A stretch of DNA of 64,000 nucleotides, from the NCBI RefSeq assembly GCF_054482525.1, contig NZ_CM137006.1. One strand, given 5' to 3'. Of this stretch, positions 2,624 to 29,898 are shown one piece after another. The notes beneath the pieces were generated by a model, which worked only from the letters and a program-made list of their open reading frames with translations, was not told the DNA's origin and did no database searches. The translations under genes were made by a program, and so were the position numbers. Positions within the stretch are counted from its first letter, which is position 1. Each line of letters begins with the position of its first letter.

Positions 2624-2989
2624 TCGACAGGGAGTCAGACAACGAAGTGAACATCAGGATGATGACACTTCTGAAGGACACACCAGGATGGTGTTTCAGG
2701 GAAAGGCTTCTGGATGAAGCGAAGAGGATGACGCAGGACGCGTTAAAGGACACCTCCAGGATGGAGAATGAGAACCGGTCAGGATGATTCGGTGGGTCAG
2801 GAAGGCCAGGGACACTTCAGGATGAAGTATCACATCGGGGTGGTGTGAGCAGGAAGCAATAGTTCAGGATGAACGATTGGCCGCAAGGCCAGAGGAAAAG
2901 TTGTCAAGGATGAGCAGGGAGCAACAAAAGTAGCTGGAATGCTGCGAAACGAACCGGGAGCACTGTGAATACAGTGCTCCCTTTTTTTA
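2624..2989 (+). ncRNA. csrB: CsrB small RNA (CsrA-sequestering decoy RNA)
   Basis: About 365 nt carrying around 20 CAGGA(U/A)G / GGA motifs (caggatg, aaggatg, ccaggatgg...), ending in a GC-rich hairpin ccgggagcactgtgaatacagtgctccc plus T7 at 2954-2988; lies between syd and yqcC as in K-12; 5' end approximate. Confidence 0.88.
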
Positions 2990-3033
2990 TTCCTGCTATC
3001 CTTCGCGGCAGTTTTTCTTATTGAGGTTGCTTT

Positions 3034-3363
3034 ATGACCACTCATGACCGCGTTCGTCTCCAGTTGCAGGCGCTTGAAGCGTTACTGCGTGAACATCAGC
3101 ACTGGCGAAACGATGAACCCCAGCCGCATCAATTTAACAGTACCCAACCGTTCTTTATGGACACCATGGAACCACTGGAGTGGTTGCAGTGGGTGCTTAT
3201 TCCGCGAATGCACGATTTGTTAGATAACAACCAGCCGTTACCGGGCGCTTTTGCCGTTGCTCCCTATTATGAAATGGCGCTGGCGACGGACCATCCGCAA
3301 CGCGCGCTTATTCTGGCTGAGCTGGAAAAACTGGATGCTCTTTTTGCGGATGATGCGAGCTAA
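3034..3363 (+). CDS. yqcC: DUF446-family protein YqcC
   Basis: 109-aa ORF MTTHDRVRLQLQALEALLREHQHWRNDEPQP..., immediately upstream of truC. Confidence 0.85.
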   Translation: MTTHDRVRLQLQALEALLREHQHWRNDEPQPHQFNSTQPFFMDTMEPLEWLQWVLIPRMHDLLDNNQPLPGAFAVAPYYEMALATDHPQRALILAELEKLDALFADDAS

Positions 3364-4145
3364 TGCTGGAAATACTCTATCAGGATGAATGGCTGGTTGC
3401 GGTAAATAAACCCTCCGGCTGGCTGGTTCACCGCAGCTGGCTGGATCGCGACGAGAAAGTAGTGGTCATGCAAACCGTGCGTGACCAGATAGGACAGCAT
3501 GTTTTTACTGCTCATCGTCTGGACCGACCCACTTCTGGTGTGTTGTTGATGGGATTATCCAGCGAGGCCGGACGGCTGCTGGCACAACAGTTTGAACAGC
3601 ACCAAATCCAGAAACGTTACCATGCGATTGTGCGCGGCTGGTTGATGGAAGAAGCGGTGCTGGATTATCCACTGGTGGAAGAACTGGACAAAATCGCTGA
3701 TAAATTTGCCCGCGAAGATAAAGGCCCGCAGCCAGCAGTGACGCATTACCGCGGTCTGGCGACCGTAGAAATGCCGGTAGCGACCGGACGTTACCCGACC
3801 ACGCGCTACGGCCTGGTGGAACTGGAGCCGAAAACCGGACGCAAACATCAGCTTCGCCGACATCTTGCCCATTTGCGCCACCCGATTATTGGCGATAGCA
3901 AACATGGCGATTTACGCCAGAATCGCAGCGGTGCTGAACATTTTGGTCTTCAGCGGTTAATGCTGCATGCCAGTCAGTTGTCATTGACGCATCCTTTTAC
4001 TGGCGAGCCGCTGACTATTCACGCGGGCCTGGACGACACCTGGATGCAGGCGTTATCACAATTTGGCTGGCGCGGTCTGCTTCCTGAAAATGAAAGGGTT
4101 GAGTTCAGTGCGCCATCGGGTCAGGATGGAGAGATAAGTTCCTAA
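3363..4145 (+). CDS. truC: tRNA pseudouridine(65) synthase TruC
   Basis: 260-aa [35 protein letters not shown]... with RluA-family motif [12 protein letters not shown]. Confidence 0.9.
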
Positions 4146-4162
4146 TCCAGGGAGAAAACGGT

Positions 4163-4612
4163 ATGGCGGAAATTGGTATTTTTGTCGGCACCATGTACGG
4201 AAATTCGCTGTTAGTGGCGGAAGAAGCAGAAGCAATTCTGACCGCACAGGGCCACAAAGCAACGGTATTTGAAGATCCTGAATTAAGCGACTGGCTGCCC
4301 TATCAGGATAAGTATGTTCTGGTGGTTACGTCCACGACCGGGCAGGGCGACCTTCCTGATAGCATTGTGCCGCTCTTTCAGGGAATCAAAGATAGTCTGG
4401 GCTTCCAGCCGAATCTGCGTTATGGCGTGATTGCGCTCGGCGACAGCAGTTATGTGAATTTCTGCAATGGCGGCAAACAGTTCGATGCCTTGTTGCAGGA
4501 ACAGAGCGCTCAGCGGGTTGGCGAAATGCTGTTGATTGACGCCAGTGAGAACCCGGAACCGGAAACGGAATCAAATCCGTGGGTCGAACATTGGGGCACG
4601 CTGTTGTCCTGA
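4163..4612 (+). CDS. yqcA: Flavodoxin-like protein YqcA
   Basis: 149-aa [29 protein letters not shown]... with flavodoxin fold signature. Confidence 0.88.
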
Positions 4613-5046
4613 TATGTTCAGCGAGCGGTAAATGCCGTTTTAGCGGTGCTGAATCGAATCTTTTCAGGCAAATGCCAGTAAAAACTGCTTCATAGCGCGG
4701 ATTTTTACTGGCGTTTGCCTGGAGTCAAGCGATCCATTTCATACTCTTCTTTATTTCTTCGTTTTAACCCTTCCTTTCTTGTTTTTGTTTTCATTTCCGT
4801 GAAGTGGATTCCACCGTCCAGGGCTAATGCCAAAATCGGGCCTCATTGAACGCATTAATGTTGTGTTGTTGCACGGTGAGCCGCTATGGCGCGCTTTTTA
4901 TACTGCTATTGCCAGATATAAACACGCGCCGTATTCGGCGAACGACCTATAAAAACGGCAAAAAACACCCTACGTCACCTCTGATTTCCTGGCGATGTCG
5001 CAGTCCAGAGTGAGCGTGGCTAACGCGAATTTTCAGGAGTGCAACA

Positions 5047-6399
5047 ATGAGTTCTTTAAGTCAGGCTGCGAGCAGTGTGGAAAAACGCACGAATGCTCGT
5101 TACTGGATAGTGGTGATGTTGTTTATCGTCACATCCTTCAACTACGGCGACCGCGCTACGCTCTCTATCGCCGGTTCGGAAATGGCCAAAGATATCGGCC
5201 TTGATCCTGTGGGAATGGGCTATGTGTTCTCTGCTTTCTCATGGGCTTATGTTATCGGGCAGATCCCTGGTGGCTGGTTGCTGGACCGTTTTGGTTCAAA
5301 ACGCGTCTACTTCTGGTCGATCTTTATCTGGTCGATGTTTACCTTGCTGCAAGGCTTCGTCGATATTTTTAGTGGATTCGGCATTATCGTTGCCCTGTTT
5401 ACGCTGCGCTTCCTGGTCGGGCTTGCTGAAGCGCCATCTTTCCCCGGTAACAGTCGCATTGTAGCGGCCTGGTTTCCGGCGCAGGAAAGGGGAACGGCGG
5501 TGTCGATTTTTAACTCCGCTCAATACTTCGCAACGGTGATCTTCGCGCCGATTATGGGCTGGCTGACGCATGAAGTGGGCTGGTCACACGTCTTTTTCTT
5601 TATGGGCGGTCTGGGCATTGTCATCAGCTTTATCTGGTTGAAAGTCATCCACGAGCCAAATCAACATCCGGGTGTAAATCAGAAAGAGCTGGAGTACATC
5701 GCTGCGGGTGGCGCGCTGATCAATATGGATCAGCAAAACACCAAAGTTAAAGTACCGTTCAGCGTGAAGTGGGGGCAGATCAAACAGCTGCTCGGGTCAC
5801 GGATGATGATCGGCGTTTATATCGGTCAGTACTGTATCAACGCCCTGACTTACTTCTTTATTACCTGGTTCCCGGTTTATCTGGTGCAGGCGCGCGGGAT
5901 GTCGATTCTTAAAGCGGGCTTTGTGGCTTCCGTTCCGGCGGTTTGCGGTTTTATCGGCGGTGTGCTGGGTGGGATTATTTCCGACTGGCTGATGCGCCGC
6001 ACGGGATCGCTGAACATTGCGCGTAAAACACCGATCGTAATGGGCATGTTGCTGTCGATGGTGATGGTGTTCTGCAACTACGTCAACGTTGAGTGGATGA
6101 TCATCGGCTTTATGGCGCTGGCCTTCTTCGGTAAGGGCATCGGGGCGCTGGGTTGGGCAGTAATGGCAGATACCGCGCCAAAAGAGATCAGCGGTCTTTC
6201 CGGTGGCCTGTTCAACATGTTCGGTAACATTTCTGGCATCGTCACGCCAATCGCAATTGGTTATATCGTTGGCACGACTGGCTCCTTTAATGGGGCGCTG
6301 ATTTATGTTGGTGTTCATGCCTTAATCGCGGTACTGAGCTACCTGGTGCTGGTGGGCGATATCAAGCGTATCGAGCTGAAACCTGTCGCGGGGCAATAA
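5047..6399 (+). CDS. gudP: MFS glucarate/galactarate transporter GudP
   Basis: 450-aa polytopic membrane ORF, first gene of the gudPXD arrangement. Confidence 0.9.
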
Positions 6400-9164: not shown

Positions 9165-9260
9165 GCCTGTTGCGCTACGTATCAGGCCTACATTATTTTT
9201 TTAATTCATTGAATTTAATTGGTGTTTATGCCGAATAAGGCGTTAACGCCGCATCCGGCA
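9165..9260. repeat. REP-like palindromic units in the gudD-barA intergenic region
   Basis: gcctgttgcgctacgtatcaggcctac and tgccgaataaggcgttaacgccgcatccggca resemble REP consensus (..GCCTGATGCG.. / ..GCCGGATGCGGCG..). Confidence 0.5.
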
Positions 9261-9334
9261 TAAACACAGGCACCTTGTCACCAGTCTGAAACCAGCGTCA
9301 TAAAAAGCCGATTGCTACTCGGCAAGACGGTCCA

Positions 9335-25277: not shown

Positions 25278-25330
25278 TTAGCGATTATGCCCTTATGATA
25301 AAAATTATCTCCAGTTACCAGAGATAATGA

Positions 25331-25377
25331 GAAAGGTAACTTCCCTCTCGCGGGGGAAGTTACCTTTCTTTTTTTTT
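25331..25377 (+). terminator. Perfect 15-bp stem hairpin followed by T9, 25 nt upstream of the ygcW start codon
   Basis: gaaaggtaacttccc-tctcgcgg-gggaagttacctttc followed by ttttttttt; classical intrinsic-terminator architecture on the + strand. Confidence 0.55.
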
Positions 25378-29141: not shown

Positions 29142-29898
29142 AGCCGAACCGGATGCCGGAATGCTGGCGGAAAAAGAGTGGCAGGCGGCGGCTCAGGGTA
29201 ATAGCGGACCGGATGTTTCGCTTCTGCGAAGTTTACTCGGTGCTGATGAACAGGCTGCCGCCGCGCTGCTGTTGACGCAGAGAAAAAACGGTACGTCGAT
29301 GTCTTTAACCGCGTTGAGCATGGGGGATGAACGGGCGTTGCACTGGCTGCGCTATCTCATGGCTCTTGGGTTTGAGGAAGCTGTATTACTGGAGACGGCG
29401 GCAGATCTGCGCTTTGCGCCGGAATTTGTCGCTCGCCATATTGCCGAATGGCAGCGTCAGAATCCGCTGGATCTGATAATTACCGGCTGCCAAAGCAGCG
29501 AAGGGCAGAATGGGCAAACGCCATTTTTGCTGGCGGAAATGCTGGGCTGGCCCTGCTTCACCCAGGTGGAGCGTTTTACTCTCGAAGCGCCGTTTATCAC
29601 CCTCGAACAGCGTACTGAAAACGGGCTGCGCTGTTGCCGGGTTCGCTTGCCTGCGGTGATTGCCGTGCGTCAGTGCGGTGAAGTGGCCTTGCCAGTACCG
29701 GGAATGCGCCAGCGAATGGCGGCGGGGAAAGCAGAAATTATCCGTAAAACTGTTGCTGCCGAATTGCCAGCGATGCTGTGTCTGCAACTGGCAAGAGCAG
29801 AGCAACAACGCGGAGCGACGCTGATTGATGGGCAAACGGTAGCAGAAAAAGCGCAAAAGCTATGGCAGGACTATTTACGTCAAAGGATGCAGCCATGA
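29119..29898 (+). CDS. ygcR: Electron-transfer-flavoprotein beta-subunit-like protein YgcR
   Basis: ORF from MNILLAFKAEPDAGMLAEKEWQAAAQGN... (259 aa); overlaps the ygcS end and ygcQ start, suggesting translational coupling. Confidence 0.82.
   Translation: MNILLAFKAEPDAGMLAEKEWQAAAQGNSGPDVSLLRSLLGADEQAAAALLLTQRKNGTSMSLTALSMGDERALHWLRYLMALGFEEAVLLETAADLRFAPEFVARHIAEWQRQNPLDLIITGCQSSEGQNGQTPFLLAEMLGWPCFTQVERFTLEAPFITLEQRTENGLRCCRVRLPAVIAVRQCGEVALPVPGMRQRMAAGKAEIIRKTVAAELPAMLCLQLARAEQQRGATLIDGQTVAEKAQKLWQDYLRQRMQP

Follow-up and report, generated by a model that had tools for sequence, protein, structure and literature searches.

We propose that a long inverted repeat between yqcA and gudP in E. 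coli is transcribed into a stem-loop at the 3′ end of the yqcC-truC-yqcA mRNA, where it would protect this end and, working with Rho, insulate the downstream operon from yqcA transcription. We put the probability of this reading at roughly 45%. The window that we analysed is a 64-kb (64,000-nucleotide) stretch of the E. coli chromosome, on the + strand of which lie csrB, yqcC, truC, yqcA and gudP. The fold of the repeat, the conservation of its pairing across genera, the composition of the DNA that follows it and a published Rho signal in the same intergenic region all bear on the proposal, and each is described below.

The inverted repeat and its predicted fold

The hairpin is made up of the following parts.

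4662-4724, + strand: the full predicted RNA stem-loop, with the 20-bp stem, three closing pairs (U.G, U-A, U.G) and a 4-bp inner stem
4665-4684, + strand: the 5′ arm, CAGGCAAATGCCAGTAAAAA, which ends with an A5 run (4680-4684) and holds the mini-palindrome GGCAAATGCC
4685-4701, + strand: the loop region, with a weak inner stem of CUGC (4685-4688) and GCGG (4697-4700), an 8-nt loop and a bulged A4701
4702-4721, + strand: the 3′ arm, TTTTTACTGGCGTTTGCCTG, which starts with a T5 run (4702-4706) and whose G4713 wobbles with T4673

The arms are as an initial annotation of this DNA had described them, a 20-bp stem with one mismatch around a 17-nt loop, and 19 of the 20 pairs are Watson-Crick. At the remaining pair, T4673:G4713, RNA from the + strand, which is the sense strand of yqcA and gudP, has a G.U wobble, and RNA from the - strand has an A.C mismatch. 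This is the longest local inverted repeat within the 64-kb window, and a pattern made from the arms, with up to 3 mismatches allowed, matches the window twice where 0.03 matches are expected. The chance of a 19/20 inverted repeat within 60 nt is about 2e-4 per 64 kb of random sequence, a figure that is our own estimate and not the output of a tool. The inverted repeat is real, and not a product of chance.

For RNA of the + strand, RNAfold predicts a 23-bp stem, a bulged A and a 4-bp inner stem with a minimum free energy of -40.8 kcal/mol, compared with -16.9 +/- 2.9 kcal/mol for shuffled sequences (z -8.1; 0 of 200 shuffles fold as well). The hairpin at 4662-4724 still dominates when 200 nt of context are folded. 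The corresponding energies are -31.7 kcal/mol for RNA of the - strand and -22.2 kcal/mol for single-stranded DNA.

The full stem is A/T-rich near the loop, where the T5 run of the 3′ arm faces the A5 run of the 5′ arm. No U-run lies 3′ of the full stem (GAGTCAAGCG / GAGUCAAGCG comes next), so the earlier remark that the repeat has no trailing T-run is right for the stem as a whole, although it overlooked the T5 run that opens the 3′ arm. In the RNA this U5 run sits 3′ of the inner core after a single bulged A, yet is paired to A5 in the full structure. The loop region is the counterpart of an inner hairpin in the homologous module of other genera. In E. coli this inner hairpin has a 4-bp stem that includes one U.G pair, an 8-nt loop and an energy of -3.9 kcal/mol, and it is absent from the predicted fold of a nascent RNA that ends at the T-run.

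Surrounding genes and intergenic DNA

The neighbouring features of the window are as follows.

2632-2991, + strand: csrB, from an Rfam match of 382.9 bits
4163-4612, + strand: the coding sequence of yqcA (flavodoxin), last gene of the yqcC-truC-yqcA run, from the list of open reading frames and RefSeq annotation, including that of K-12
4613-4664, + strand: the 52-nt spacer from stop codon to hairpin, hypervariable and with indels among Escherichia lineages
4722-4800, + strand: a pyrimidine-rich tract of about 80 nt directly 3′ of the stem (C19, G8, T41, A11), a candidate Rho-utilisation region
4724-4745, + strand: a conserved motif, GTCAAGCGAyCnnTTTCAyAC, which was found in alignments, abuts the hairpin and also occurs in genera without the hairpin
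5029, + strand: a published Rho termination region, given as the best-scoring position of a bicyclomycin read-through signal, with the coordinate converted from K-12 2922118
5047-6399, + strand: gudP, first gene of gudPXD, from the list of open reading frames and RefSeq and K-12 annotation; the unit that the hairpin would insulate

The hairpin is located in the 3′ untranslated region of yqcA. The distances first reported, about 50 bp from yqcA and about 330 bp from gudP, agree with the 52 nt that we count from the end of the stop codon (4612) to the hairpin and the 325 nt from the hairpin to the gudP ATG at 5047. The spacer shows no significant structure (fold z -1.7), and a terminator scan of 4100-5200 found no + strand terminator-like site, and none between yqcA and gudP.

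The tract at 4722-4800 has a GC skew of -0.46 to -0.58. What genera have in common is the length of this tract, 72-73 nt from one conserved motif to another, and its composition, but not its sequence, and the C/G ratio is about 2-3 in most of the homologous loci that have this segment. There is a second C-rich tract at 4920-4999. The motif at 4724-4745 resembles a CRP site (GCGA-N6-TCAyA), which makes it a candidate by our own reading, and it probably belongs to the regulatory DNA upstream of gudP rather than to the hairpin.

The - strand was also considered. A 42-codon open reading frame lies at 4705-4833 on this strand, has its stop codon inside the 3′ arm and is called a hypothetical protein by PGAP in some RefSeq genomes. 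We reject a conserved small protein here because frameshifts and stop codons interrupt the reading frame in Citrobacter, Salmonella, Silvania and others, as does a stop codon in E. coli E69. A possible - strand promoter that overlaps the 3′ arm (TTGACT-16-AAAAAT) was set aside as well: the number of such sites in the scan equals the chance expectation, and the TTGAC word is conserved, but by our reading its -10 partner is not kept in genera without the hairpin.

Copy number and distribution in E. coli

When the 5′ arm and its flank are used as the query, the hairpin segment is found in 5425 of 5426 complete E. coli genomes, at one place per genome. A search with the full palindrome gave two places per genome; the second vanishes when one arm is used alone, and we therefore ascribe it to a match of the palindrome with itself across the two strands. 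An identical hairpin is found in K-12 at 2922426-2922482 on the - strand, where neither a repeat nor an RNA is annotated. About 78% of the genomes in our E. coli sample are identical over 106 nt, and the 3 variant sites all lie in the loop or flank and none in the arms, a sample too small to test the pairing.

A covariance-model search of the window and 82 loci found no second copy. The single copy per genome and the lack of a K-12 repeat annotation lead us to reject a dispersed repeat (REP/BIME, MITE) or the remnant of a mobile element. A search of Rfam 15 returned only CsrB nearby, and nothing credible over the hairpin in E. coli, Salmonella, Citrobacter, Superficieibacter or Phytobacter. 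Our literature search found no paper with both yqcA and gudP and none that prints the arm sequence, and we found no published description of the hairpin.

A homologous module in other Enterobacteriaceae

We compared 80 yqcA loci from other species of Enterobacteriaceae. At most of these gudP is the next gene after yqcA, with a gap of 279-528 bp. A homologous module is found just ahead of the gudP upstream region in Escherichia, Salmonella, part of Citrobacter, Superficieibacter and Silvania, as well as in one Raoultella and one "Enterobacter" genome, and there are diverged forms in Phytobacter and Kosakonia. Its layout is CTGAATCG(A/T)GTTAGC..GGCAAATGCC.GTAAAA on the 5′ side of an inner hairpin and TTTTTAC.GGC.TTT.C on the 3′ side. 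We built a covariance model from 19 copies; it recovers all of them, together with two Silvania copies that were left out of the building, and finds nothing credible elsewhere.

Genera without the module include Enterobacter, the C. freundii group, Trabulsiella, Buttiauxella and others. The module has been lost or remodelled in many genera that retain the synteny of yqcA and gudP. At the position of the hairpin some other genera carry palindromes that we read as REP-like (GCCGGGTAAGGCG...CCCGGC).

The inner part of the module is a short hairpin with a T-run behind it. In Citrobacter and Superficieibacter it folds at -5 to -9 kcal/mol and is followed by T5-6, and the copy of Citrobacter sp. MGH106 looks like a terminator on both strands in our terminator scan. 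The energy of the inner hairpin ranges from 0 to -5.8 kcal/mol in Escherichia lineages. The T-run behind it is nearly invariant in the 19 homologues and longer than the upstream A-run in 14 of them; three loci (L063, L065 and L072) have a run on the + strand only, and in Phytobacter and Kosakonia an A-run takes the place of the T-run. This homology to short hairpin and T-run sites in sister genera had been overlooked by the initial annotation.

Two further differences set Escherichia apart. Salmonella, Citrobacter and most other genera have a yqcA-proximal terminator directly after the stop codon (in Salmonella, CCCTCCCCCTACGGGAGGG and then a T-run), whereas Escherichia has none. The outer stem is also five pairs longer in Escherichia than in other genera, because the GGCGTTTTCA of other genera reads GGCGTTTGCC in Escherichia, an extension that takes few changes (TTTTCA to TTTGCC). 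The 5′ part of the module (CTGAATCG.GTTAGC, GGCAAATGCC) is conserved in sequence and not merely in pairing.

Selection on pairing and strand preference

The pairing has been maintained while the sequence changed. In the alignment of 19 homologues 76% of the cells are paired, compared with 33-50% when the partners are slid by 1-3 columns, and the covariation score is 0.170 compared with 0.03-0.11 for the slid partners. One pair of the outer stem is A-U in 7 sequences, C-G in 5 and U-A in 3, and five of the 6 inner pairs change on both sides. The conservation of pairing in related genomes had been proposed earlier as a check, and here the answer is positive: in other genera the pairing is kept by compensatory changes. 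This covariation of the stem favours a folded strand over a site for a sequence-specific protein.

Among six Escherichia lineages, the proportion of variable columns is 10% in the 5′ arm, 25% in the 3′ arm and 7-11% between the hairpin and gudP, compared with 71% for the loop and 59% for the spacer upstream of the hairpin. The divergent E. coli lineage L002 has five changes in the arms, two of them disruptive, and folds at -25.9 compared with -39.3 for the same segment of the window.

Which strand is folded? Cells that are not Watson-Crick, read on the + strand, are G.U in 44 cases and A.C in 22 overall, and 18 and 2 in Escherichia, counts that rest on few independent events. The + strand folds better in 6 of 6 Escherichia lineages, by 3.4-11.5 kcal/mol; outside Escherichia the difference in energy between the strands goes both ways. 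The + strand is thus likely to be the one that folds, although the few independent events and the mixed energies outside Escherichia mean that this call is not proven.

Termination, Rho and the proposed mechanism

E. coli mRNAs that depend on Rho have been found to end precisely 3′ of stable stem-loops which have no U-tail and behind which the sequence holds more C than G (Dar & Sorek 2018, PMC6061677). The same study presents evidence that these 3′ stem-loops protect against PNPase and RNase II, and reports that they match intrinsic terminators in the lengths of stem and loop. The hairpin downstream of yqcA is likewise stable and without a U-tail, and it is followed at 4722-4800 by rut-like sequence in which C exceeds G. 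An intrinsic terminator, on the other hand, has a G+C-rich stem of about 5-14 bp and a loop of 3-8 nt, and the E. coli hairpin departs from this form. The initial annotation held that the repeat is not a classical terminator, and for the E. coli form this stands; the scan did not flag it. Given that the inner hairpin is missing from the predicted fold of the nascent RNA, efficient intrinsic termination is unlikely in E. coli.

The literature places Rho dependence somewhere in the yqcA-gudP intergenic region. K-12 position 2922118 on the - strand is given as a region of Rho termination, with a score of 3.98 and a p of 9e-8, by Adams et al. 2021 (PMC7815308, supplementary file 2). Reads upstream and downstream of this position number 114 and 23 in untreated cells and 112 and 90 with bicyclomycin (Adams et al. 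2021, PMC7815308), a four-fold rise of the downstream reads, and termination upstream of gudP is therefore at least partly Rho-dependent. The score comes from 800-nt windows, its resolution is hundreds of nt, and the peak lies about 300 nt downstream of the hairpin. The signal at 5029 could come from yqcA read-through or, equally, from the attenuation of transcripts that start at the gudP promoter.

The portion of the curated Term-seq tables of Adams et al. 2021 that covers this region gives no 3′ end between K-12 2914915 and 2924161, and the tables hold no coordinate that begins with 29219-29227. As yqcA is weakly expressed, we treat the missing 3′ end as absence of evidence. The initial annotation had also suggested an RNA processing or stability element. 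Pairing on the + strand, compensatory changes, a variable loop, the C-rich tract and the Rho region all favour this suggestion; on the other side, no transcript boundary is mapped at the hairpin, and for this reason it is by inference that we let the yqcA mRNA end there and let the hairpin protect it.

The sequence of events that we propose is as follows. The repeat would make up the untranslated 3′ end of the yqcC-truC-yqcA transcript, where it would fold into a very stable stem-loop of 23+4 bp. In E. coli it would not act as an efficient intrinsic terminator because the inner hairpin is too weak, and RNA polymerase would mostly pass it and enter the C-rich, G-poor untranslated tract at 4722-4800. 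Rho could load on this tract and end transcription before or within the gudP leader, after which 3′-to-5′ exonucleases would shorten the RNA as far as the base of the hairpin. The outcome would be a defined and protected 3′ end for yqcA, with yqcA transcription kept out of the inducible gudPXD. We suggest that the ancestor was a short hairpin and T-run site, terminator-like both ways, of the kind conserved upstream of the gudP control region in many Enterobacteriaceae. Escherichia differs in having no yqcA-proximal terminator, a weak inner hairpin and a longer outer stem.

Some observations sit less comfortably with the protective stem-loop. The module is also conserved where yqcA has a terminator of its own, and a cap for yqcA can therefore be neither its original nor its sole role. 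A purely structural cap does not explain why the 5′ part of the module is conserved in sequence, and the A-run that replaces the T-run in Phytobacter and Kosakonia counts against our reading.

Alternative explanations

The hairpin may be a weak intrinsic terminator, possibly one that works in both directions. The inner hairpin and the A5:U5 pairs would form first, with release at the T5 run (4702-4706), and the outer 15 bp would be a mere extension that forms on read-through RNA. The near-invariant T-run, its excess in length over the A-run in 14/19 homologues and the Citrobacter sp. MGH106 homologue, flagged on both strands, speak for this, and the three loci with a run on the + strand only fit a + strand terminator. 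In E. coli, however, the 4-bp inner stem with its U.G pair is weak, its energy falls to 0 in two Escherichia lineages, and it does not form in the predicted fold of an RNA with its end at the T-run; the site went unflagged in the terminator scan, and nothing converges on it from the - strand. The four-fold effect of bicyclomycin also points to termination that is at least partly Rho-dependent. We consider a weak terminator unlikely.

Just as unlikely, in our view, is a relic without function. Quasi-palindromes in E. coli are known to mutate by templated correction, and an old terminator-like quasi-palindrome could have been perfected in Escherichia by a template-switch mutation and could persist because it is harmless. 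The loss or remodelling of the module in many genera that keep the synteny, the few changes needed to extend the Escherichia stem and the weaker fold of the L002 lineage all speak for such a relic. That said, variation in the arms is as low as in the regulatory DNA next to them, over the same time in which the loop and the spacer before the hairpin have varied freely, compensatory changes have occurred across genera, and the hairpin is the only structure in E. coli able to end or protect the yqcA mRNA.

RNase III needs a duplex in the length range of this stem, and the hairpin could be a processing site of the kind found in the lambda sib retroregulator. The full duplex of about 26 bp would form solely on RNA that extends past the T-run, and a cut would separate the yqcA mRNA from the downstream RNA and expose it to decay from its 3′ end. 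The predicted duplex of 23+4 bp has a single bulge and provides the continuous duplex of at least 20 bp (about two helical turns), Escherichia has a longer stem than the other genera, and a hairpin and T-run nested in a longer stem is also the layout of lambda tI/sib. Length alone does not make an in vivo substrate, however, and the in vivo RNase III study on which the length range draws stresses sequence and pairing preferences around the cut site (PMC6212723). A processing site is in our estimation rather unlikely, but it would be compatible with the protective stem-loop, and the two could coexist.

We judge two related readings improbable. The first is a switch of the sib type, where a stop at the T-run would leave the small hairpin and read-through would give the duplex that RNase III cuts; were this true, the decay of the yqcA mRNA and the fate of RNA entering the gudP leader would be coupled to the efficiency of termination. 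The second is a small RNA, either derived from the 3′ untranslated region or independent, with the 5′ part of the module (CTGAATCG.GTTAGC...GGCAAATGCC) as its body and its end at the hairpin in Salmonella and Citrobacter. For an independent small RNA we found no promoter-like site upstream of CTGAATCG in Salmonella or upstream of the module in Citrobacter, and inspection by eye gave no conserved -10 upstream of CTGAATCG.

The repeat had also been read as a protein-binding site that controls gudPXD, that is, a palindrome in DNA bound at a distal upstream position by CdaR, CRP or another factor. The hairpin does abut conserved non-coding DNA that reaches the gudP promoter (the segment with 7-11% variable columns). 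There is a mini-palindrome in each of the arms, GGCAAATGCC or GGCGTTTGCC, words of the AATGCC type (family D2) recur in the intergenic region, and a 9-mer of the arm is shared with a palindrome upstream of cdaR, although this match has an E of 0.66. The stem positions nevertheless covary (A-T, C-G, T-A) and leave no fixed half-site, the half-sites would be 37 bp apart from centre to centre, the hairpin lies about 190-245 bp upstream of what we take to be the likely promoter, and many genera have an intact gudP control region without the module. A CdaR operator in particular was rejected. The candidate box that we used, GGCATT-TGCAC-AATGCC, is not an established one and was drawn by us from a 14-mer common to the upstream regions of K-12 cdaR and garD; the best intergenic match to it scores 10/17, which is the mode of shuffled sequence. 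With a stem that covaries and arms that match this box no better than shuffles do, the claim of a protein-binding site finds no support, and we consider it very unlikely. To explanations of any other kind we leave a slight chance.

Implications and relation to known systems

The hairpin is a real, conserved and structured element of an ordinary kind, most likely a tail-less 3′ stem-loop beside rut-like sequence, descended from a terminator-like hairpin. If this is true, it shows once more how an mRNA without a canonical terminator can be ended and protected in E. coli, and how transcription of yqcC-truC-yqcA, a constitutive housekeeping unit, is prevented from spilling over into an inducible sugar-acid (glucarate) operon.

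The comparison of genera is mildly instructive for evolution, as they differ at one and the same site. Some have a proximal terminator and the distal module, others a proximal terminator or a REP-like palindrome alone, and Escherichia has the distal module only, remodelled into a long tail-less hairpin beside a rut-like tract. We would then see here a natural instance in which a Rho-assisted 3′ end has replaced an intrinsic one. It is a minor story that bears on no open question, and the hairpin has no associated phenotype.

Of the systems that we know, the stem-loops of Dar & Sorek 2018 (PMC6061677) are similar in that they lack a U-tail and have more C than G downstream, and here too there is a Rho signal in the intergenic region. 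The yqcA hairpin differs from that class in its internal A5/T5 runs, which would come from a terminator-like ancestor, and in having no mapped 3′ end at its foot. Its stem is also much longer than the terminator-sized stems that we would expect of that class.

Bidirectional intrinsic terminators offer a second parallel. The modules of Citrobacter, Superficieibacter and others consist of a short hairpin between A4-5 and T5-6, and E. coli keeps both runs. The E. coli core, however, has 4 bp, its runs are buried in a 20-bp stem, and there is no convergent gene, since yqcA and gudP are co-oriented.

REP/BIME elements that stabilise 3′ ends are likewise intergenic palindromes downstream of a gene, and like them the hairpin could block 3′ exonucleases. 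Unlike them, it is single-copy and lacks a REP consensus, and the K-12 annotation shows no repeat at its position.

Finally, in lambda sib/tI the RNase III site is formed only by read-through of the terminator. The yqcA hairpin shares with it a terminator-like core nested in a longer duplex that is formed by read-through only and has the length for RNase III. There is no sequence similarity between the two, and the likeness is one of layout alone.

Conserved sequences on the 3′ side of the hairpin

Between the hairpin (4665-4684 and 4702-4721) and gudP we find two motifs that are kept across many genera:

4724-4745, GTCAAGCGAyCnnTTTCAyAC, a CRP-like motif (GCGA-N6-TCAyA)
4790-4815, TTTCATTTCCGTGAA..TTCCAC

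The CRP-like motif is found even in loci that have no hairpin. The distance from TCAAGCGA to CCGTGAA is constant, at 72-73 nucleotides in nearly all loci that carry both, and in one yqcA locus (L041) it is 62 nucleotides. The spacer between these two elements has kept its pyrimidine-rich composition and not its sequence.

Variation in and around the hairpin

In most Enterobacteriaceae yqcA is followed immediately by either a GC-rich hairpin of the terminator type or a REP-like palindrome (e.g. L023 2958-2986, L007 and other loci). Escherichia has neither at this site (4613-4664), and its spacer there is hypervariable, with indels of 8 and 24 nucleotides between lineages.

The module, the homologue of the hairpin in other genera, has a distinct form in Kosakonia and Phytobacter. 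Here an A-run (..AAAAGTGCATTTACA) stands in place of the T-run on the 3′ side (L049, L050, L051, L059 and L064, at about 3045-3135), and therefore the L050 hairpin resembles a terminator facing the minus strand only. The change from T-run to A-run may be the result of a small inversion or a template-switch event.

In E. coli 2014C-4135 (L089) the match to the window ends right after GAGTCAAG, at 4729, and from L089 position 131 the sequence is unrelated, having arisen by insertion or rearrangement. The hairpin of this strain is intact but separated from the gudP upstream region.

The 3′ arm also hosts the end of an open reading frame:

4705-4833, minus strand, 42-codon ORF starting at TTG (29 codons if counted from ATG)

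Its TAA stop falls within the arm, and some RefSeq E. coli genomes carry it as the hypothetical protein WP_001296328.1. Because the frame is lost outside Escherichia and broken in E. coli E69, this is probably a spurious gene call.

Other elements in the window

2632-2991, csrB small RNA gene (Rfam RF00018, 382.9 bits), directly 5′ of yqcC
9222-9267, 28-nucleotide GC-rich palindrome of REP-like appearance
25330-25369, perfect 16-bp inverted repeat with an 8-nucleotide loop
53985-54022, 18-bp inverted repeat flanked on either side by A/T runs, resembling a two-way terminator

Candidate CdaR box

Upstream of cdaR there is a perfect 17-bp palindrome, GGCATT-TGCAC-AATGCC (L083 2310-2463, the K-12 degP-cdaR intergenic region), that we propose as a candidate binding box for CdaR, the gud/gar regulator. 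We searched the gudP upstream region for a clear counterpart and found none. The garD upstream region (L082 6909-7282, garP-garD intergenic) shares 14 identical bases, CATTGTGCAAATGC, with the palindrome; by our own estimate the probability of this by chance is about 4e-4.

Probable gudP promoter and leader

Judged from its sequence, the following site is likely the gudP promoter:

4876-4904, -10 TATACT (4899-4904) and a poor -35, GTGAGC (4876-4881)

It lies immediately 3′ of the conserved AATGTTGTGTTGTTGCACGG, and its Citrobacter equivalent, GTGAGA-17-TATACT, was flagged by a promoter scan. The weak -35 with TATACT agrees with an activator-dependent promoter. If this is the promoter, the hairpin would lie approximately 190-245 bp upstream of the gudP transcription start.

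A Rho termination region of the “orphan” class has been reported just 5′ of the gudP start codon, at 5029 (K-12 2922118, minus strand; PMC7815308), and the presumed gudP leader contains a second C-rich, G-poor tract (4920-4999). Together, these suggest Rho-dependent attenuation of gudP in the uninduced operon.
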